A stretch of 64,000 bases of DNA. Origin: an uncultured Acidobacteriota bacterium (GTDB lineage: Bacteria; Actinomycetota; Acidimicrobiia; Acidimicrobiales; SHLQ01). The stretch lies in contig CAVTAI010000003.1 in NCBI GenBank assembly GCA_963732655.1, positions 4,940 to 68,939 of the forward strand, written 5' to 3'. The notes under the pieces are model-generated. The model ran no database searches and was not told the origin of the DNA. It saw only the letters and a program-made list of their open reading frames with translations. Shown piece by piece: positions 1 to 8,424 of the stretch (the first letter of the stretch is position 1; every line of letters begins with the position of its first letter). Position numbers and translations under genes: made by a program.

Positions 1-1531
1 CGTGCAGCGTCCGCAGTGCGTCGATCAGCTTGGTGCGGTCCTCCTCACCGAGCTTGGACAGGGGCTTCGCGGTGTCGATGGCTGCGAGGGTGTCGTCGCC
101 GGCCTCCCAACGGAGACGAAGGGGGCGTTCGACTGTGATGCGCATGAACCCGAACGACTCGTTCGGCAGGATCTTCACCCGGTCGCCCTCGGTGAAGTCG
201 CCGTAGAGGCGAGTGATCTCGGCGATCTGGTCGGCGGAGATCTCCTTGCGCTTCTCGCCGAGGCTCTTGCGCATCTTCACGAATAGCTCGCGGGCATCGA
301 CAAGTTGAACCTTGCCGCGCCGTTCGGGGCTCTTGCGGTTGGTGACGATCCAGAAGTAGGTGGAGATCCCGGTGTTGTAGAACAGCTGGTCTGGGAGACC
401 GACGACAGCTTCGAGCCAGTCGTTCTCGATGAGCCAGCGGCGGATCTCCGATTCCCCCGACCCCGCAGCACCGTTGAACAGCGGGGAGCCATTGAAGACG
501 ATCGCCAAGCGAGAGCCGCCCTGCTCGATGGGCTTCATCTTCGAGATCATGTGCTGCAGGAACAGGAAGCTGCCGTCGTTGATTCTCGGCAGGCCGGCTC
601 CGAAGCGGCCGGCGAACCCGGCCTTGGCGTGTTCAGTGCGTACGGCGTCTTCGACCTTCTTCCACTCCACCCCGAACGGCGGGTTGGCGAGCAGGTAGTC
701 GAAGTGGGCGCCCTTGTGGCCATCCTCGCTGAAGGAGTTGCCGTGAGCGATGTGCGAAGCGTCCTGCCCCTTCAGCATCATGTCCGAGCGGCAGATCGCA
801 TAGGTCTCGGCGTTCAGCTCCTGGCCGTAGACCTCGAGCCGCGCTTCCGGGTGGGTGGAGCGCAGGTAGTCCTCTGCGATCGACAGCATTCCTCCTGTGC
901 CACACGCTGGGTCGAACAGCGTCTTCACCACTCCGGGCTTGGCGAGCAGGTCGTCGTCCTCGATGAACAGCAATCGAACCATCAGCTGGATCACCTCACG
1001 CGGCGTGAAGTGCTCACCAGCGGTCTCATTCGAGAGCTCCGAGAAGCGCCGGATCAACTCCTCGTACAGGTAGCCCGTCTCGATGTTCGACACGACCCCG
1101 GGGTGCAGGTCGATCTCGGCGAACTTCGACACAACCATGTACAGCAGTTTCGAGTTGTCGAGCCGAGTGATCTGCACGTCGAAGTCGAACTTGTCGATCA
1201 CGTCCCGAGCGCCGGTCGAGAACCCGGCGATGTAGCCGCGAAGGTTCCCAGCGACGTTGCCCGGGTCGTCGAGCAGCCGGCGGAAGTCGAGCTTCGAGGT
1301 GTTGAAGAACGGCTGCCCGGCGGCGGCTCGCAGGATCGCCTCACGGTCGCCATGCTTGGCGTGCTCGGCGAGCACCTTCGCCTTGGTCGGCTCCAACACG
1401 CAGTCGAGGCGGCGAAGCACGACCAGCGGCAAGATCACCTTGCCGTACTCGGACTGCTTGTAGTCCCCCCGCAGCAGATCAGCGACCGACCAGATGAACG
1501 CCGCATGGTTCTTGATCGTGGCTTCCGACAC
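1..1531 (-). CDS. hsdM: Type I restriction-modification N6-adenine DNA methyltransferase subunit (HsdM); the 3' end runs off the left edge of the window
   Basis: Not in the supplied ORF track because it has no stop inside the window. The reverse-strand frame from GTG at 1531..1529 (GGGGAG 5 nt upstream) is stop-free down to position 2. It reads VSEATIKNHAAFIWSVADLLRGDYKQSEYGKVILPLVVLRRLD..., FDPACGTGGML (SAM-binding motif) and YLLANPPFGVEWKK (NPPF catalytic motif, codons at 671..685). Confidence 0.9.
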   Translation of the reverse strand, partial: MSEATIKNHAAFIWSVADLLRGDYKQSEYGKVILPLVVLRRLDCVLEPTKAKVLAEHAKHGDREAILRAAAGQPFFNTSKLDFRRLLDDPGNVAGNLRGYIAGFSTGARDVIDKFDFDVQITRLDNSKLLYMVVSKFAEIDLHPGVVSNIETGYLYEELIRRFSELSNETAGEHFTPREVIQLMVRLLFIEDDDLLAKPGVVKTLFDPACGTGGMLSIAEDYLRSTHPEARLEVYGQELNAETYAICRSDMMLKGQDASHIAHGNSFSEDGHKGAHFDYLLANPPFGVEWKKVEDAVRTEHAKAGFAGRFGAGLPRINDGSFLFLQHMISKMKPIEQGGSRLAIVFNGSPLFNGAAGSGESEIRRWLIENDWLEAVVGLPDQLFYNTGISTYFWIVTNRKSPERRGKVQLVDARELFVKMRKSLGEKRKEISADQIAEITRLYGDFTEGDRVKILPNESFGFMRITVERPLRLRWEAGDDTLAAIDTAKPLSKLGEEDRTKLIDALRTLH

Positions 1532-1543
1532 TGCGCTCCCCAA

Positions 1544-1561
1544 GTTCCAGCCCGCTGGAAC
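1544..1561. promoter_or_regulatory. Perfect dyad GTTCCAG-cccg-CTGGAAC in the divergent hsdM / orphan-gene promoter region; possible operator
   Basis: 7-bp arms at 1544..1550 and 1555..1561, read directly. It lies 13 nt upstream of the hsdM start and about 70 nt upstream of the 1629 start. No binding protein has been identified. Confidence 0.3.
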
Positions 1562-1628
1562 ACCCAGAGACCGAATGCGAGCCTATTCCAGTCGAGGTGG
1601 TCACGCTGGACTTTAAGGTGAAGCGAGG

Positions 1629-2897
1629 ATGGCTGTGGCCCGAACGACGTCTCAGCGGAAAGCCGGCGTCACACCGCCTTGGCACACTGGGGACGTGGAC
1701 AACGACCCTGGGGTGGACGACGATGCAGAGGATCAGGGCCGAGGCGACCCGGCGGACGAACGCCCCGAGACCGGCGCGCGACGTGGCGGTGCTGTCACCC
1801 CCTCCCTCGACGCCTTTGCGTCCATTCAGCGCAGCCTTGCTCGCATCGACCTCGCCGCCATCCGAGCGGCTCAGCGTGCCGTTGAGGAGTCGGGTGCCTT
1901 GAGGAAGTTCGCCGAGGCGCAGAACGCCGTCGTGGCGAACTTCGCTCGCTCGATCGACTTCACCAGAATTGCCGCGGCGGTCCAGGGACTCACTGACGCG
2001 GGCGCCACTGCGCAGGCCATGGCAGCCCAGCGGCAGTGGGCCGAGACCCTCGCACAGTCCGTCGACTTCTCGGCATTGAACAGCGCCGTCGCATCGAGCG
2101 CCGTACTGGATTCGTTGGCGCGTACGAGTTCGGCCTTCAGCGAGTCGCTGCGCAAGGAGACTGAGCTCTTCTCCCGAATCGCCGAGCGCATCACGTTCGA
2201 CCTCCCAACGATCGACATGTCGGGCCTGCTCGCTGCCCTCGACCGCTGGATCCCGGTCAACCTCCGCCGCGTCGGTGCGCTCGACGCAGTCGCGATGATT
2301 GCGCTGGAGGAGGGGCTTCCGCTGAGTTGGGTACCGCGCGCCGAGATCGTGACCGTGCTGATCGAGGCCGAAAGCGCAGAGGATCGTGCCCTGATCCTCG
2401 CCGACCGCCGTGACGATGTTCTCGACGACTGCGAGGAGGCGGTCGCGTCCGCCGAGCATGAGTGGGCGGCCCAGTGCAGGAGTGCCATTGGTGCGATGCG
2501 AGCCGGCTTCGACGGCCCCGCCCAGTCCCACGCGTCGAACATCATCGACAGCATCGTCCTCACCTTCCACGGCAAGAATGGCCGCGAGCATGCAAAGAAG
2601 CACGCTCAGGCCGAGCTTGACGATCTCCCACTCCAGCTTGCCGCCGAGAACCTGACCCTTCGGCCGTTGTTCCGTGCCTTCACGACCTGGTTCCCCGGTT
2701 CCGGGATCGACCCGCCCCGCCACTTCTCGCGCCATGCGACGTCACATGCGGTCGGGCACCTGGGGGTGTTCGCCCCGATGTCCGCTCTGGTGGCGGTGAT
2801 GCTCGCCACATCACTGACAGTGCAGTACTGGCTGTACTACGGGAGTGACGCTGATCGCTCGTCAACCGGATCCGAGGCCCTCGACGGTGGCGAGTGA
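1629..2897 (+). CDS. Hypothetical protein, 422 aa: acidic, probably disordered N-terminus, helical body, hydrophobic C-terminal segment
   Basis: ORF track 1629..2897. Third codon positions are mostly G/C, unlike the overlapping minus-strand shadow ORFs. AAGGTG lies upstream of the ATG. I recognise no family motif. Confidence 0.6.
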   Translation: MAVARTTSQRKAGVTPPWHTGDVDNDPGVDDDAEDQGRGDPADERPETGARRGGAVTPSLDAFASIQRSLARIDLAAIRAAQRAVEESGALRKFAEAQNAVVANFARSIDFTRIAAAVQGLTDAGATAQAMAAQRQWAETLAQSVDFSALNSAVASSAVLDSLARTSSAFSESLRKETELFSRIAERITFDLPTIDMSGLLAALDRWIPVNLRRVGALDAVAMIALEEGLPLSWVPRAEIVTVLIEAESAEDRALILADRRDDVLDDCEEAVASAEHEWAAQCRSAIGAMRAGFDGPAQSHASNIIDSIVLTFHGKNGREHAKKHAQAELDDLPLQLAAENLTLRPLFRAFTTWFPGSGIDPPRHFSRHATSHAVGHLGVFAPMSALVAVMLATSLTVQYWLYYGSDADRSSTGSEALDGGE

Positions 2898-2964
2898 GCT
2901 ATCGGGGCGGACGATCGCCCTCGATCCTGCGTCCGAGGTTGTGGAGTCTGGAAGTCGCGCAGCT

Positions 2965-4509
2965 TCATACTTCGAATGCGAGTCGCAGGCCGTCGCGATC
3001 TGCCTCGTCTAGGATGCCAACGTTGTGAAGGTGCTCGAGTAGGGCGGCCCGGCTCACCTGCAACCGGGCTGCAACCGCCTCGATGCCCTGTCGAGTATCG
3101 ACCCGAGCATCTGTCTCGGCGATTGCCAACGTAACAAGAGAAGGAGGCATCAGGAGCCAGGCGGCAAAGGCGTTCGCTCGCTGCTCGATGGCCCGCGGTG
3201 CCCAGGGGCCACTAGCGATCGCCAGGCGTGACCCGAACGATCGATCGTGGAGCAGATGGCACAACTCGTGTGCGAGTGTGAACCGCCGACCGGTGCGCGA
3301 TGAGTTGGCGGGGCTCTGCGAGTTCAAGGCGACTGTCGGGCTGTGATGGCCGCTGACGAATGCAACGGCTCGGAGCTGTCGGTCATCGAGAGTCGAATCC
3401 GATACCCGGACGCCCCAGCCAGCCAACAGTGCCTCAATGTCCACCGCCGAACCGTCGAGATCATCGGCGATGTCGTCGAGTAGGTCGGCGGCCAGTTCAT
3501 AGCCTTGTTGCCACGGTCGCCGGGTGACGTCGATTGGTTCGTCGAAGACGAAAGTGGCCAATCCGTCTGTCGGCGCCGGCTCGTAAGCCTCAAGGAGGAG
3601 AGTCGCGAGCCTCTCAGCATCGTCCATCGTGATCGTCGGACTTGCGGACCCGAAGAGGAGGGCGGCATCGCAGCTCCCCGTAAGAACGAGTTCCGACGCC
3701 TGCGTTCCTCCGAACACCGCATCGAACGCCTCACCATCGCGGAGCTGGGAAGCGCGGTCTTTGATCTGTCGCCAGCGATCAGCCATCCGGGCGCGGTCGA
3801 AGCCGAGACCAGCAATCCAACCTGTTCGTTCTTCGGTTCGCCCGTAGTCCCGAAGACTGCTCACAGCCAGCGCCAGCGTGCTGCAGCGCTCCGAGGTCGG
3901 GAGCTGCTCCCTGAGCCAACTTGAAGCGCTCTCAAGCACGTCGAAGAGTGGACCAGCGACAGTCGTTGGCTCTAGATGGGCAGCGCCTTCGGCTGTGAGG
4001 AATTCAACGTTGTCGGCGCCTGCTATCTCGAAGCTCCGCCAGGAGACCTCAATCCGATCTCCCAGCCTGCGCAAGCGAACATCAGGCAAGATCCCACCAT
4101 CACGGGAGGAACGTAGCGAGTGCCTCTGCTCCCATTCGTAGCTGGCATCTAGTGCCATTGGGTTCGCCTCGACGTCCCCAGTCGTGAGGGCGGCCGGTAC
4201 GCCACCAATGTCTGTTGCCGCCGTCATGCTCTTGACGCCGATGGGTGGGCGCTGCTCGTGCAGTAGCGGATCCCAGTTCGCAGCGAGCCACTCGAGGAGC
4301 GGCAACATGTACCAGTGGGACGCGTGGAGTGTTTCGCCCTGGTCGATATGCGCACACAGGTTCACGCCACGAACCCAGATCTGGATTGCACCCCAGCTCT
4401 CGGCCATCTCGGGGGTGGCGCCAGCGCCCTCATCGGGATCGCGATGGAACGAGAGCCGGACGGCGAACGAGGACGTGTCACCGGCAAATCGCTCCCAGCG
4501 GACGCTCAT
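2965..4509 (-). CDS. 514-aa protein with a C-terminal ImmA/IrrE-family (COG2856-like) zinc metallopeptidase domain; N-terminal ~370 aa unrecognised
   Basis: FTLAHELCHLLHD (HEXXH) followed by EQRANAFAAWLLMP near the C-terminus. I moved the start from the track's 4647 to ATG 4509..4507 (MSVRWERF...), which forms an ATGA overlap with the stop of the upstream small gene (4506..4508). Confidence 0.75.
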   Translation of the reverse strand: MSVRWERFAGDTSSFAVRLSFHRDPDEGAGATPEMAESWGAIQIWVRGVNLCAHIDQGETLHASHWYMLPLLEWLAANWDPLLHEQRPPIGVKSMTAATDIGGVPAALTTGDVEANPMALDASYEWEQRHSLRSSRDGGILPDVRLRRLGDRIEVSWRSFEIAGADNVEFLTAEGAAHLEPTTVAGPLFDVLESASSWLREQLPTSERCSTLALAVSSLRDYGRTEERTGWIAGLGFDRARMADRWRQIKDRASQLRDGEAFDAVFGGTQASELVLTGSCDAALLFGSASPTITMDDAERLATLLLEAYEPAPTDGLATFVFDEPIDVTRRPWQQGYELAADLLDDIADDLDGSAVDIEALLAGWGVRVSDSTLDDRQLRAVAFVSGHHSPTVALNSQSPANSSRTGRRFTLAHELCHLLHDRSFGSRLAIASGPWAPRAIEQRANAFAAWLLMPPSLVTLAIAETDARVDTRQGIEAVAARLQVSRAALLEHLHNVGILDEADRDGLRLAFEV

Positions 4510-4835
4510 CTGCTGCGCCTCGTAGCTCGGCGTAGGGTTCGTCGATCCACGGACCCGCTTGTGAGCCAGTCCTTCAGCACGGACGGCGGGACCTCGTCCC
4601 ACGAAACCGGATAGCCGTGCCAGAGGTTGGCAGCCTCGTCGTGGCACTGGCCGCAGAAGGCCTGGTCGCCGTCGGTTGCGAACCGCTTCCGGCCGTAGAG
4701 AGCGCTCTCACCGAGAAGGCGCGCTGCGTCCACGCCTCGGGGGCAGATGGAGCCCCTTCGGCCCGGTGTCGGTATCGGTTTGTGCTTCGGGTTGGGTTCG
4801 TACTCCATGACCTGCCCACACGGTACTGTCCCCAC
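4506..4835 (-). CDS. Small Cys/His-containing protein (100-109 aa), function unknown; possible nuclease-type toxin (speculative)
   Basis: ORF track 4506..4835 (GTG start). An internal ATG at 4808..4806 gives MEYEPNPKHKP.... The G/C third-position bias looks like coding sequence. The stop overlaps the start of the downstream gene (ATGA). Motifs: YEPNPKH, GRKRF, CGQCHDE, WHGYPVSW. Confidence 0.55.
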   Translation of the reverse strand: MGTVPCGQVMEYEPNPKHKPIPTPGRRGSICPRGVDAARLLGESALYGRKRFATDGDQAFCGQCHDEAANLWHGYPVSWDEVPPSVLKDWLTSGSVDRRTLRRATRRSR

Positions 4836-5064
4836 CGCGGCTCACGATTGGTTTGACCGAGAGGAGTCCCGCTGACTGCGGCTGGCGGGACCGCTTGGTG
4901 CTCGGCCTCACCCCGCTGCGGATCCGGCGGCGGCTCCCGCCGGTGCCTACGCGACATGGCCTTTGACCGCAACGGAAGCGTTGTGGTCAAGACACCCATC
5001 GGGCCCCCGCCACGGTGGGCCGTCGAGGGTGGCGAGGGCTCTGCGGCTCGGGCGGTTCGTTTAC

Positions 5065-6534
5065 TCATGAGACGCCGGCCTCGACCGGCACCGGTTGGAC
5101 TCGGCTGGGGTCGAAGTAGCGACCCCGCTTGCCCTTTCTGATGACGACGTGCTCGACGAACAGGCCGACGAGGGCGCGTTGCTGGTCCAGGTCGAGGCGA
5201 TCCCAGCTGTCGGCTGTCACGCCCTCGAAAGCCGTGCCGTCGAGGCTGGGGTCGACAGTCAACTGGTCGAGCCGTCGCCTCGCGAGTAGTAGGCGAGCGT
5301 GGACCGGATCCTGTGCGGCGAGGAACTGCGCACGGTTGATCCGCTGCGCGCCGTAGTCCGCCGCAAGGTCCGCGAGGAACTGCTCATCGGTCTCGATCGA
5401 GGCGACCAACTGGTGGGCGTCTCCGCCAGTTCGACGAGCGCGGGCGGTTGCGATGTCGGTGTGTTCGAGCGCGGCGAGCACGTAGTCGACGACGATCTGC
5501 TCGACGTAGTCGGCCTTCACCGTGTTGGAGCCGCAACCGTGCCGGTTCGCCTTGTCGCACGCGAGCGTCCGACGGGGCGGGCGTTGCCCCGGCCTGAGCT
5601 GCTTGTCCATACGCTCGCTGACGGCGGCCATCACCGAGCCGCACTCGGCGCACCGGCACATCCCCGCGAGCAGGTTGACCTTCGGCCGGCGACCGATGGG
5701 CGCATGGGCGAGACGGGAACACACCTGCTCCCACGTCGCCCGGTCGAGGATCGGTTCCCAGTTCGCCTCGCCGACCACTGTGCCCTTCGACTCCCGGAGG
5801 CCGGTGATCCGGCCCGACCTCAGGACCATGCCGAGCGAACCTGGTCGCCACTTCTTGCCGTGTGGCGATGGGATGCCTCGCTCGTTGAAGTCGACGACAA
5901 TCGACGCCAGCGACTGCCCACCCAGCACGCGCGCTGCAACTTCTCGAAGCACGTCCGCCTCTTCCGGCACGACCTCGATCCGGCCCTGTGCGACTCGCCG
6001 GTAGCCGTATGAGCGGCCGCCGCCGTGGGCGTTGCCGCGCTCGGCGTTCTGGTGGTGCTTGGCGCTGACGCGTTCACCGATTCGAGCGGACTCGTGCTCG
6101 GCCGCGGCGCCGAGGACCTGGGCGGTGAACCGGCCACTCGCCGTGTTGAGGTCGACGTGGCCGGCAGCGACTGTCCGGATCTCGACGCCGGCGGAGGCAA
6201 CCACTTTCGTCAGCTCGACGAGGTCGGCGAGCCGCCGGTACAACCGGTCGGGGTGGTACGCCACGATCACATCGATCTCGTGCCGGCGGACGAGCTCGAG
6301 CAGGCGCTCGTACTCGGGGCGGCACGCACCGGAGTAAGCGCTCAGGTCGTTGTCGATGAGCACCTCGTCGACGCTCCATCCCTCCAGTTCGGCCAGATGG
6401 CGGCAACCGTCGATCTGTCGGCCGACTCCAGCCGCCTCGCCGACCTTGTCCAACGAGATCCGGGCATAGATCGCCGCACGCCCGACCGGCGCGTCTGCCC
6501 CTGTGCGGAGGTTCGACTGTCGCTTTGCGGTCAT
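5065..6534 (-). CDS. Large serine recombinase (phage/ICE integrase type)
   Basis: N-terminal resolvase-type catalytic region AAIYARISLDK...GRQ. Recombinase domain and Cys-rich zinc-ribbon region (CRCAECGS...ACDKANRHGCGS). Helical C-terminal tail. 489 aa. Confidence 0.92.
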   Translation of the reverse strand: MTAKRQSNLRTGADAPVGRAAIYARISLDKVGEAAGVGRQIDGCRHLAELEGWSVDEVLIDNDLSAYSGACRPEYERLLELVRRHEIDVIVAYHPDRLYRRLADLVELTKVVASAGVEIRTVAAGHVDLNTASGRFTAQVLGAAAEHESARIGERVSAKHHQNAERGNAHGGGRSYGYRRVAQGRIEVVPEEADVLREVAARVLGGQSLASIVVDFNERGIPSPHGKKWRPGSLGMVLRSGRITGLRESKGTVVGEANWEPILDRATWEQVCSRLAHAPIGRRPKVNLLAGMCRCAECGSVMAAVSERMDKQLRPGQRPPRRTLACDKANRHGCGSNTVKADYVEQIVVDYVLAALEHTDIATARARRTGGDAHQLVASIETDEQFLADLAADYGAQRINRAQFLAAQDPVHARLLLARRRLDQLTVDPSLDGTAFEGVTADSWDRLDLDQQRALVGLFVEHVVIRKGKRGRYFDPSRVQPVPVEAGVS

Positions 6535-6610
6535 TCGCTGCGCTGGCTCCTCGGCTGCTCGGGACTCCCTTCTGAAGTCCCACCTGTGGGAGCTGCTCAG
6601 CGCGTCGTGA

Positions 6611-7447
6611 TTACCTCAGAAATTTCGAGGTGGTGTTGTCGGCCAGCACTTTGCCGCCGGTCTGACAAGTGGCGCAGTAGCTGACGGTGTACGAGTTGTA
6701 CTCCACCGCGCGGATCTTGTCGCCGCACACGGGGCACGGCTCGCCCGTCCGGCCGTGGACCCGCCCCGGCCGCTCTTTCGATGACGACATGTCGTCCCGG
6801 GCGTGTTCGTACGCGAGACCCTCATGGATGGCGTCGGCGATGGCCCGGTGAAGCTGGGCGATCTGGTCGTCCGTGAGTTTGGCGGTGCTGGCGAACGGGG
6901 ACAGCCGGGCGCGGTGGCAGATCTCGTTGGCGAGACGGCGCCCGACCCCGGCCACGTGATGCTGATCACGGAGGAACGTGTGGAGCCGCTTCGATGTCGA
7001 CCGCACGATGGCGCCGAGGGTCGCCGGATCGACGGTGTCGGCATCGGGGCCGAGCGCGCCGAGCGGAACCTGCCCCTCGGGGGGGCCGGCGACCACCCAG
7101 ACGCCCGCCTTGTGCTCGGTCCCGGCCTCGGTGAGGAGCACGGCGCGACCATCGGTGAACACCCAGCGGGCCAGCCCGCCGCGGGCCTTGGGGGACTGCT
7201 TCTCGTCGGGCCGGAGTCGTCCACCTTGCATCAGGTGAACGACGAAGGTCACGGGCTCGAACTCGATGAGCAGGTACTTGGCCCGCTGCCCCACGCGGAG
7301 CAACGGTGTCCCTACGGCCTCCTCCGGGCGTGGTACCGCCGTCTTGAGCGCCGTGAAGCTGAGGGCGCGGAACCGATCGAGCTCAGCACCGGAGAACGCC
7401 GCCGTGAGGCGTTCGGCGTGGGCGCGCACTTCGGGCAGTTCCGGCAC
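6611..7447 (-). CDS. Fpg/Nei-family DNA glycosylase / AP lyase
   Basis: N-terminal MPELPEV catalytic motif, H2TH region, C-terminal zinc finger CPVCGDKIRAVEYNSYTVSYCATCQ. Confidence 0.9.
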   Translation of the reverse strand: MPELPEVRAHAERLTAAFSGAELDRFRALSFTALKTAVPRPEEAVGTPLLRVGQRAKYLLIEFEPVTFVVHLMQGGRLRPDEKQSPKARGGLARWVFTDGRAVLLTEAGTEHKAGVWVVAGPPEGQVPLGALGPDADTVDPATLGAIVRSTSKRLHTFLRDQHHVAGVGRRLANEICHRARLSPFASTAKLTDDQIAQLHRAIADAIHEGLAYEHARDDMSSSKERPGRVHGRTGEPCPVCGDKIRAVEYNSYTVSYCATCQTGGKVLADNTTSKFLR

Positions 7448-7462
7448 GAGCGACCTCCTGGC

Positions 7463-7846
7463 CTACGTGGCGGGCTCGGACGAGCGGAGCGCAGCCAAGA
7501 CATCCGTGAGCTCGACCAGGAGCTCTCGGTGACGGAGGAGCGCCTCGGTGTCGCCCGACAACTGGAGACGACCGTCGATGAAGGCGCGCTGGGCGCTGAG
7601 GCGGCCGTCGGCGATGGCGGTTGCGGACTGGTGGTCGAGAGCGAACGTGACGTCGGTCGACGGGGGCTGTCCCGGCTCGACTCGGGCGCCACCCGGCCCG
7701 AACGCCACGTGGTACTCCACCCGCCCGAATCCGGGGACCCCGTCGACCACATAGGTGAGGACGAGCGGCTCCGGCGAGGCCGGGAAGGCCGCCGCCATGG
7801 CGACCCCGGCCGCGGCGATCCATTCCGGAGAGAGGTACATGATCAC
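7463..7846 (-). CDS. SCP2 sterol-binding-domain protein
   Basis: 127 aa. ...AIADGRLSAQRAFIDGRLQLSGDTEALLRH... is the typical SCP2 C-terminal signature. Sits immediately upstream of the glycosylase gene on the same strand. Confidence 0.75.
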   Translation of the reverse strand: MIMYLSPEWIAAAGVAMAAAFPASPEPLVLTYVVDGVPGFGRVEYHVAFGPGGARVEPGQPPSTDVTFALDHQSATAIADGRLSAQRAFIDGRLQLSGDTEALLRHRELLVELTDVLAALRSSEPAT

Positions 7847-7857
7847 CTCCGCAGTGT

Positions 7858-8424
7858 ATGCGGGGGTGGGAAGCTGGTCCCGTGGACCGCGCGGATGAGC
7901 TCGCCCACCCTGGCCTGGTGGACCGATGGGAGCTGCACGGAACCGACGCGTCCGAGGAGCTGACCATCGACGTCGTGCTCATCCTCGATGCCGGGCGAGC
8001 GGGCGTCGGCATCGTCATCGAACGAGCGGGTGAGATGCTGGCGGTGATCGACCCCACGCTGGCGCCGCCGCGGTCGTCCGGTTTGGAAGTGCGGGGCCCG
8101 GGGCTCTGGCTCGACCTCTCGGTGGGCGAACCGCTCACCCAGGTGACGGTCGCAGTCGAGGCGTTCGGGGTGATGCTCGACGGCCGATGCGACCTCGGTC
8201 CCGAGGCCCGTGGCGTCGTCATTCCGCTCGGGATGGACCTCGACTGGGTCGTGGCGACGGACGGTGCCGAACCCGAGCTGTGGACCGGCGACAGCTATCA
8301 CGTCGACTGTGATGTGGTGGGGGAGCTGACCCTCGGAGACCAGCGAATCGACGTGCTCGGTTCCGGGTGGCGCACCCATCGGTGGGGTGATGGCTCCGAG
8401 GGCGCGGAGCTGTGGGCGCTATGA
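7858..8424 (+). CDS. Hypothetical protein, 188 aa
   Basis: Strong G/C third-position bias in this frame. The overlapping minus-strand ORFs look like shadows. No motif recognised. Confidence 0.6.
   Translation: MRGWEAGPVDRADELAHPGLVDRWELHGTDASEELTIDVVLILDAGRAGVGIVIERAGEMLAVIDPTLAPPRSSGLEVRGPGLWLDLSVGEPLTQVTVAVEAFGVMLDGRCDLGPEARGVVIPLGMDLDWVVATDGAEPELWTGDSYHVDCDVVGELTLGDQRIDVLGSGWRTHRWGDGSEGAELWAL

Follow-up and report, generated by a model that had tools for sequence, protein, structure and literature searches.

A predicted BECR-fold RNase toxin gene coupled to a gene for an ImmA/IrrE-type peptidase fusion: a candidate two-gene toxin-antitoxin module

Introduction

Zinc peptidases of the ImmA/IrrE type (M78, COG2856) have been linked to nuclease toxins before. 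Makarova et al. (2009) described COG2856 peptidases, usually fused to an Xre-type helix-turn-helix (HTH) domain, in operons with RelE and PIN toxins and proposed a three-component system (PMC2701414). In RosmerTA systems, diverse toxins are combined with the ImmA-protease antitoxin RmrA, a NetFlax hub with many toxin partners; the toxin gene comes first in 58% of RosmerTA pairs, and the antitoxin role has been experimentally established (Ernits et al., 2023; PMC10440598). Here we analyze a gene pair that occupies positions 2965 to 4835 of a 64,000-nucleotide (nt) stretch of contig CAVTAI010000003.1 (assembly GCA_963732655.1; uncultured bacterium, Acidimicrobiales in GTDB), referred to below as the window. 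The pair consists of a small gene for a predicted RNase toxin and a large gene for a protein that ends in an ImmA/IrrE-type peptidase domain. A first reading of the window from its letters only (below, the sequence-only reading) had taken such a pairing to be undescribed, which is too strong in view of the 2009 prediction for COG2856 with RelE and PIN toxins (PMC2701414) and of the RmrA hub (PMC10440598).

On the toxin side, the closest described proteins belong to the BECR fold. Within the canonical BECR RNases, a BECR-Tox2-like group has been defined by a low-structure N-terminal extension with a Lys-His (KH) motif and by another conserved His where strand β4 begins. Its domains mainly form the C-terminus of the Menshen protein NsnC and also occur in polymorphic toxins, and its founding member is toxic in Escherichia coli and is rescued by the cognate immunity protein (bioRxiv 10.64898/2026.08.28.747851). 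NsnC C-termini were independently described as BECR RNase effectors (Li et al., 2025; PMC12065111). Neither the BECR preprint (bioRxiv 10.64898/2026.08.28.747851) nor the Menshen paper (PMC12065111) mentions an ImmA/M78 partner, and full-text literature searches returned no paper combining BECR toxins with M78 peptidases.

Two further structures bear on the pair, both from contact-dependent inhibition (CDI) systems. Protein Data Bank (PDB) entry 5T87 shows CdiA-CT of Cupriavidus taiwanensis in complex with CdiI (PMC9111745). The sPC4L fold, a ββββα-ββββα arrangement, has been assigned to the CdiI protein 5FFP_A and to CdiI of Enterobacter cloacae (4NTQ_B); the fold serves as a scaffold for toxin binding and recurs in PurA, MRP and Whirly, which bind nucleic acids (PMC9424270).

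Results

Two overlapping genes

The minus strand carries both genes. The small gene (4808..4506) encodes 100 amino acids (aa) plus stop, and its product is a predicted BECR-fold RNase toxin, as judged from the translation of its open reading frame (ORF), its homologues, an AlphaFold2 (AF2) model, Foldseek and PADLOC. The large gene (4509..2965) encodes 514 aa plus stop, starting MSVRWERF, and its product is predicted to be an antitoxin or immunity protein with a fused ImmA/IrrE-type peptidase. The two genes overlap as ATGA (4509..4506), in which the TGA closes the small gene and the ATG opens the large one, as had been read from the sequence, implying translational coupling. The longest ORF of the small gene starts at a GTG and would give 109 aa (4835..4506, minus strand). 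In an alignment of 68 homologues, most of which are about 100 aa long with an N-terminus M-x-YEPNPKHK, the conserved start is the ATG at 4808, so that the protein begins MEYEPNPKHK. Every peptide quoted in the sequence-only reading is present: the large protein contains FTLAHELCHLLHD and EQRANAFAAWLLMP, the small protein EYEPNPKHKPIPTPG ... YGRKRFATDGDQAFCGQCHDEAANLWHGYPVSW.

The small protein is a probable free-standing BECR RNase toxin

The small protein has no match in Pfam (E≤1) or NCBIfam. The invariant residues of its family are Y3, K8, H9, K10, G19, C22, P23, L32, S35, R42, H64, G65, W70, V73 and P74. K8 and H9 are invariant across 66 sequences. In the AF2 model (mean predicted local distance difference test score [pLDDT] 81.7, about 90 in the core), residues 1–27 (4728..4808) form an extension with neither helix nor strand according to AF2/DSSP, which carries K8-H9 (4782..4787) and a GRRGSxCP motif. 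The extension is followed by the BECR core (4605..4727), delimited by DSSP of the model, by conservation and by the profile alignment to 5T87_E, and composed of helix 28–33 and strands 36–38, 41–45, 50–57 and 62–68. The invariant H64 (4617..4619) stands at the start of strand 4 (62–68), as seen from conservation and the model. The C-terminal part (residues 69–100; 4509..4604) is modeled as helices 75–84 and 89–99 with a basic tail, and helix 75–84 also aligns with the 5T87 toxin in the profile alignment.

A Foldseek search of the PDB with this model placed four chains of the CdiA toxin 5T87 on top (probability 0.97–1.00, target-normalized template modeling [TM] score 0.64–0.66), followed by RelE and ParE toxins at low probability. 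The family sequence profile, compared with the PDB, likewise ranked 5T87_E ("CdiA toxin") first, at an E-value of 0.28 and through an HG..W...V.R segment. The crystallized fragment of 5T87 aligns only from the core helix on, so that the KH extension falls outside this comparison. In PADLOC, the small protein of the window matched positions 181–259 of 263 in the NsnC profile PDLC03898 (E 8.7e-5), and the C-terminal effector domain of this profile was matched by 58 of the 66 family members (best E 2e-9). Some members match other NsnC profiles, and NsnC profiles are the only PADLOC matches of the family. An exhaustive profile search of 1.84 billion representatives returned only 310 clusters, almost all of them short stand-alone proteins, and a fold search of BFVD with the toxin gave nothing significant.

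The structural features that define the BECR-Tox2-like group are thus all found in the small protein, namely a core of one helix and four strands, an unstructured KH extension and a second His near the N-terminus of β4. Based on this combination, it is very probably a free-standing BECR RNase toxin domain of the BECR-Tox2-like lineage or close to it. The suggestion of a stand-alone nuclease-type toxin, for which the BECR class had been named as one to check, is supported by the modeled core, by 5T87 as the first match of both Foldseek and profile searches, and by the NsnC matches.

Two other features that had been read into the small protein did not hold. Its "Cys/His" character does not denote a zinc finger: the Cys pair of the CGQCH motif is not strictly conserved, as C55 lacks conservation and C52 varies, being replaced in some homologues, and there are no four invariant ligands. 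The motifs thought to resemble colicin E3 comprise a short [DE]-Y-x-P-x-P-K patch close to the N-terminus and a basic G-[KR]-[KR]-R-[WF] strand, which do occur in similar order in both of these small RNase toxins, but the catalytic D/H/E constellation of colicin E3 is not reproduced, and the resemblance has no statistical support. Pfam gave no "Cytotoxic" match at E≤1, no E3 entry appeared in the PDB profile search at E≤10, and no colicin E3 structure was among the best 50 Foldseek matches. Aligning the family with the E3 C-terminal domain in hhalign yielded a probability of 0.24%, over a 14-residue Y-x-P-x-P-K patch only. We therefore rejected homology to colicin E3.

The large protein joins a putative immunity-like domain to an intact peptidase

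The AF2 model of the large protein (mean pLDDT 88.8, predicted TM score 0.87) falls into three parts. An N-terminal domain (residues 1–205; 3895..4509) comprises two ββββα repeats with a putative PC4-like/CdiI-like fold, as indicated by the model, Foldseek and invariant residues. It is followed by a middle region that is all-helical in the modeled secondary structure (residues 206–350; 3460..3894) and by a Peptidase_M78 (ImmA/IrrE) domain (residues 351–514; 2968..3459). All three are encoded on the minus strand. The helical region is the most variable part, with a mean pairwise distance of 0.64 as compared with 0.51–0.53 in the flanking domains.

The peptidase domain is the sole Pfam family in the protein (PF06114, E 1.6e-12, 47.7 bits at a cutoff of 22, residues about 390–494), confirming the HEXXH module of ImmA/IrrE type in the sequence-only reading. 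The HEXXH motif reads HELCH (3256..3270, minus strand), and the third metal ligand is E442 (3184..3186, minus strand). None of H414, E415, H418 and E442 varies among 32 diverse homologues, and the peptidase is thus predicted to be active. Matches to characterized peptidases all center on this region: the PADLOC profiles for CapP and RmrA, the NCBIfam model spr1629 ("repressor/antitoxin") and the PDB profile matches 9VZY, CapP (7T5T) and IrrE align to it only, PHROGs matched the large protein through the peptidase domain only, and Foldseek returned IrrE and PprI for the peptidase domain.

The N-terminal 205 aa have no sequence-level relative in Pfam, PHROGs or the PDB. Many of their His, Glu, Arg, Trp and Cys positions are invariant. 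Among the structural matches of the large protein, 5FFP_A, the CdiI protein of Burkholderia dolosa, ranked fourth (probability 0.99, E 0.024, TM[target] 0.55), and PURA was a weak match. No HTH, ribbon-helix-helix or AbrB domain was found in the small or the large protein with Pfam, NCBIfam or the AF2 models. The toxin's partner is indeed a fusion with an ImmA/IrrE (M78) peptidase and, as had been noted from the sequence, there is no HTH partner, neither within the pair nor as a repressor gene nearby.

The two genes form an obligate pair across many phyla

Relatives of the large protein were sought by a pattern scan that covered each GTDB species with one genome and gave 438 stretches, and the best 80 loci (labeled L below) were examined. 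A hidden Markov model of the small protein was then run over these loci, which had been retrieved through the large protein alone. A small-protein match lay directly upstream on the same strand in 74 of the 80 loci, intact in one ORF in 61 and truncated or frameshifted in 13. Among the six loci lacking a match, L058 has no upstream sequence and L062 has only an odd minus-strand fragment. The stop of the small gene and the start of the large gene are spaced by −4 nt in 23 loci and by +2 to +12 nt in nearly all others. Recurrence of the arrangement in 74 of 80 independent loci exceeds chance, and thereby supplies the conserved co-occurrence that had been proposed as a check, some of the loci lying in defense islands.

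The pairing was also followed from the toxin side, and the large partner was present in every context examined. A divergent toxin subfamily of 132–140 aa from Betaproteobacteria (Pararobbsia, Thauera, Hydrogenophaga), which has an insertion of ~35 residues after the GxxCP motif, is always followed by a protein of 493–500 aa with an overlap of 4–8 nt (L098, 6001–7915; L099, 6001–7877; L101, 6001–7910). This partner is homologous to the large protein over its full length (BLASTP 3e-54; hhalign probability 100% over 470 columns). All-against-all ORF clustering of 87 loci revealed no third conserved gene, be it a repressor, an ATPase or another; the next commonest neighbor family, a generic lump of ABC/AAA ATPases, reached at most 11 of the 87 loci. 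Near-universal pairing together with the lack of a third conserved gene indicates an obligate, self-contained two-gene module.

The module is widespread. Homologues of the large protein fall into >1,100 clusters at 90% identity, the best 120 being nearly all about 495–546 aa long, and the module retains 40–60% identity across phyla. The best 80 loci cover >10 phyla: actinomycetes (Acidimicrobiia, Streptomyces, Pseudonocardia, Frankia and others), Alpha- and Gammaproteobacteria, Vicinamibacterales, Binatia, Hydrogenedentota, Planctomycetes, Rhodothermales, Spirochaetia, Myxococcota, Chloroflexota and Verrucomicrobiota. No homologue of the module was found in plasmid, phage and IMG/VR collections. 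A collection of 15 billion proteins contains the large protein of the window but not the small one, whichever of the two starts is taken, and the annotations of five contexts from NCBI/JGI (L088, L092, L093, L096, L097) call no gene upstream of the large one. Some genomes have the module twice, at chromosomal sites far apart (L052 and L057 in OY762070.1; L077 and L086 in OZ241979.1).

Small genes decay beside intact large genes

In three loci (L009, L070, L084) an intact large gene stands without a small gene, and in six others (L011, L012, L029, L043, L053, L064) it lies beside a truncated small gene lacking the KH or the His segment. Intact large genes next to lost or decayed small genes are the pattern expected if the small protein is a toxin and the large protein its antidote. 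At L057 (a Pseudomonadales metagenome-assembled genome [MAG], 5662–7545), the small and large genes are fused in frame into one ORF, and at L011 (5800–7551) a small gene truncated after strand 3 is fused to the intact large gene; these fusions could be Rosetta-stone or decay events, or long-read assembly errors. L070 (a Bradymonadales MAG) has a 150-aa ORF in the position of the small gene (about 5400–5900), with a weak match to the EVE domain (E 0.004, below the Pfam cutoff), which may represent a partner replacement.

The module resides in variable, often mobile surroundings

The genes that flank the pair differ from locus to locus. In Microthrix they include a TrwC relaxase and tyrosine integrases, and in Streptomyces and Micromonospora genes of actinomycete integrative and conjugative elements (AICEs; FtsK/SpoIIIE, SpdB, RepSA, integrase). 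The alphaproteobacterial locus L095 lies in a defense island with AbiJ, DUF1156 and DUF4276, and the Thauera locus L099 is flanked by a gene for an OLD-like TOPRIM/AAA_15 ATPase. At some loci only housekeeping genes flank the pair, and L098 and L101 have no mobility gene within ±6 kb. Overall, the settings comprise integrative and conjugative elements (ICEs), AICEs, integrase-bearing islands and defense islands.

In the window, a gene for a large serine recombinase (6534..5065, minus strand; Pfam Resolvase, Recombinase and Zn_ribbon_recom) lies 256 nt upstream of the pair on the same strand; the sequence-only reading, too, had the pair directly downstream of it. Directly beyond it follows a housekeeping gene for an Fpg/Nei DNA glycosylase (6611..7447). 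The recombinase thus probably marks the edge of an integrated island and is the probable integrase of the island that bears the pair; the recombinase-Fpg/Nei junction suggests a right-hand island edge at about 6535–6610. The neighboring restriction-modification gene is real, being the type I methyltransferase gene hsdM (2..1582, minus strand; HsdM_N, 5e-28; N6_Mtase, 4e-60), which runs off the window. It is not directly adjacent, as had been supposed, but one gene away, because hsdM and the pair are separated by a 422-aa ORF (1629..2897, plus strand) that converges on the large gene. Pfam, NCBIfam, PADLOC and PHROGs gave no match for this ORF, and it is not a conserved companion of the pair at other loci; its GC content at third codon positions of 0.79 suggests a real gene.

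A 164-aa ORF (5068..4574, minus strand) overlaps the recombinase stop as ATGA and crosses the small gene in another frame; with its R/P/S/T-rich composition it looks like a spurious ORF of high-GC DNA. No RNA family was detected in positions 1..8000 of the window, and scans of the 256-nt upstream spacer for sigma-70 promoters, terminators and repeats gave nothing beyond chance.

Discussion

A putative peptidase-switched toxin-antitoxin module

The toxin fold with its conserved active-site residues, the intact peptidase site, the lack of an HTH, the tight coupling of the genes and their obligate pairing were all computed directly, and the finding is real rather than an artefact. On balance, and with moderate confidence, we favor the reading that the pair is a self-contained, horizontally mobile module of the toxin-antitoxin (TA) or abortive-infection type, arranged with the toxin first and combining an RNase, its neutralizer and a peptidase switch. 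The 100-aa protein would then be an intracellular BECR-fold RNase whose active site draws on K8-H9 of the extension and on H64, where strand 4 begins. The 514-aa protein, produced by coupled translation from the same transcript, would bind and neutralize this RNase, most likely via the domain of two ββββα repeats. The C-terminal zinc peptidase would act as the switch, and the signal might be phage infection, DNA damage or single-stranded DNA, or loss or transfer of the element. Upon such a signal, the peptidase would cleave within the complex, either in its own immunity or linker region or at the toxin-antitoxin interface, and thereby free the RNase to arrest or kill the cell. As no HTH is present, regulation of the pair would be purely post-translational.

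The steps of this proposal differ in strength. The identity of the small protein as a BECR-fold RNase is well supported, both by its homologues and by the predicted structure. The large protein probably binds and neutralizes the RNase through its CdiI-like N-terminal domain, considering the immunity-type fold, the asymmetry of gene decay and the antitoxin role of ImmA-domain proteins in RosmerTA. For the fused peptidase, we infer by analogy alone, with ImmA, IrrE and CapP, which stay latent until a signal arrives, that it may be the trigger-responsive element that dismantles the complex.

Several observations weigh against this interpretation. The CdiI-like assignment derives from one Foldseek match (E 0.024) without sequence support, and the cognate CdiI of 5T87 is not among the structural matches of the large protein. 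The fold of the N-terminal domain also binds single-stranded nucleic acids (PC4, Whirly, PurA), such that the domain could be a sensor instead of, or besides, an inhibitor, and its conservation, unusual for an immunity domain, hints at a ligand or catalytic site. In a mirror-tree comparison, the toxin correlated with all domains of the large protein (r 0.69–0.75), and the signal of the N-terminal domain (partial r 0.32, as compared with 0.23 for the peptidase domain) is too weak to localize the interface. The asymmetry of decay is biased, as loci were selected for presence of the large gene, and part of the frameshifts may be long-read assembly errors. Finally, classic addiction modules would not typically be missing from plasmid, phage and IMG/VR collections, as this one is.

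We advance a more specific version of our proposal only tentatively: the large protein might be a single-chain "sensor-immunity-protease", in which the PC4/Whirly-like domain both cages the RNase and senses invading single-stranded nucleic acid of a phage or element, activating M78 cleavage and toxin release. If true, this would constitute a repressor-free, purely post-translational, protease-triggered form of abortive infection and would provide a handle on ImmA-type antitoxin proteases such as RmrA.

Other explanations

Alternatively, the large protein could be mainly a nucleic-acid sensor rather than an antidote, with its M78 domain activating a small pro-toxin by cleavage, for example by trimming the C-terminal basic helices or remodeling the N-terminal extension. 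Several observations fit such a protease-activated effector: sPC4L is a known binder of single-stranded nucleic acids and PURA was a weak match; the extreme conservation of the N-terminal domain suggests a ligand site; the toxin carries segments beyond the BECR core; and ImmA, IrrE and CapP are signal-activated, site-specific proteases. We nevertheless regard this explanation as unlikely. The small protein is essentially a toxin domain alone, whose conserved termini include the catalytic KH, and the related BECR-Tox2 is toxic by itself and needs a bound inhibitor. In addition, intact large genes beside decayed small genes fit an antitoxin better, while also being compatible with a harmless orphan sensor.

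The position of the pair directly downstream of a serine recombinase in the window, and its association elsewhere with tyrosine integrases, a TrwC relaxase and AICE genes, would also suit a mobile-element switch, in which excision or transfer is controlled in an ImmA/ImmR-like manner and the peptidase acts on the small protein as a regulatory substrate without an HTH; ImmA is, after all, the paradigm of ICE control. However, the small protein lacks a DNA-binding fold and keeps a conserved active site that is predicted to be of RNase type, no neighboring gene family is conserved with the pair, L098 and L101 have no mobility gene within ±6 kb, and L095 and L099 lie in defense islands, which together render this explanation quite improbable.

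There is very little to recommend a reversed polarity, with the zinc peptidase as the toxin, as first proposed for COG2856, and the small protein as the antitoxin. COG2856 was listed as a predicted toxin by Makarova et al. (2009; PMC2701414), and the PDB label of CapP reads "CapP toxin", but several genomes keep an intact large gene without an intact small gene, ImmA-domain proteins are experimentally confirmed antitoxins in RosmerTA (PMC10440598), and the homologues of the small protein include genuine toxins. Just as implausible is a detached CdiA-CT/CdiI-type cassette left over from an interbacterial competition system: CDI systems do provide the nearest structures, namely the toxin 5T87 for the small protein and the immunity protein 5FFP for the large one, but the toxin begins with a Met of its own and lacks any region for delivery, pre-toxin or recombination handle, the pair abounds in Actinobacteria and in many phyla without CDI, no secretion genes are conserved nearby, and a fused peptidase that is predicted to be catalytically intact would have no role there.

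Significance

The module joins a recently recognized toxin lineage, the BECR-Tox2-like toxins that are also found in Menshen, to the ImmA/IrrE protease family without a transcription factor. As the latter is missing, the module offers a clean system for asking what an "antitoxin protease" cleaves and senses, a question that bears equally on RosmerTA and on the Xre-COG2856 systems predicted in 2009. It is a candidate anti-phage or element-stabilizing system that current defense finders would not report, and it is widespread, cleanly delimited, often unannotated and experimentally tractable.

Comparison with known systems

The small protein shares with BECR-Tox2-like domains and NsnC the core of one helix and four antiparallel strands, the KH extension, the β4 His and profile similarity. 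In contrast to them, it stands alone at 100 aa, unfused to any PIN-like domain, and is paired with a peptidase fusion of 514 aa instead of the small BECR-Imm2 protein. The pair does not belong to Menshen (NsnABC), as only the effector domain is present, without PIN, and neither NsnA (ParB-DUF262) nor NsnB (ABC-ATPase) occurs among the neighbors.

CdiA-CT of 5T87 (CDD cd20695) is the best structural and PDB-profile match, sharing HG..W...V.R in strand 4 and the following helix. There, however, the toxin is the tip of a secreted, multi-kilodalton CdiA that is neutralized by a small CdiI, and sequence similarity to the small protein is marginal (E 0.28). With its modeled ββββα-ββββα topology, the N-terminal domain of the large protein may correspond to the scaffold that the CdiI proteins 5FFP_A and 4NTQ_B (the latter conferring immunity to the 16S rRNase CdiA-CT-ECL) represent and that binds BECR-type RNases. 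This likeness is at the level of the fold only, and in the present protein the domain is far more conserved than typical immunity proteins, besides being joined to a helical domain and a peptidase.

The pair displays generic features of type II TA systems, i.e. overlapping, co-directional genes, a patchy, mobile distribution and a variable neighborhood, while a DNA-binding, autoregulating antitoxin domain was not found in either protein. With RosmerTA (RmrT/RmrA; Millman et al., 2022; Ernits et al., 2023) it shares a toxin and an M78-containing antitoxin, the frequent toxin-first order and the contexts of mobile elements and defense. RmrA, however, usually has an N-terminal HTH, another C-terminal region and promiscuous partners, whereas the present pair is apparently obligate and lacks an HTH. 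Membership in RosmerTA is not supported by profiles either: 15 RmrA profiles match the peptidase core only (e.g. positions 147–270 of 363), and there is no RmrT match.

With Xre-COG2856, ImmA/ImmR, IrrE/DdrO and CapP/CapH, finally, the pair has in common a peptidase family with an intact HEXXH...E, links to mobile elements or defense and the association with nucleases of the RelE superfamily or PIN. These systems act on an XRE-type repressor, whereas the present pair has no HTH in cis; as there is no conserved repressor gene nearby either, its substrate must differ from an XRE-type repressor. For the same reasons, with no HTH in either protein and no conserved neighbor in 87 loci, we do not class the pair as a protease-repressor module of the ImmA/ImmR type. 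As a kind, a nuclease toxin with an M78-peptidase-containing partner is already known; what is new is the architecture, which dispenses with an HTH and unites an N-terminal region of ~350 aa, with a putative immunity-like fold, with this particular toxin family.

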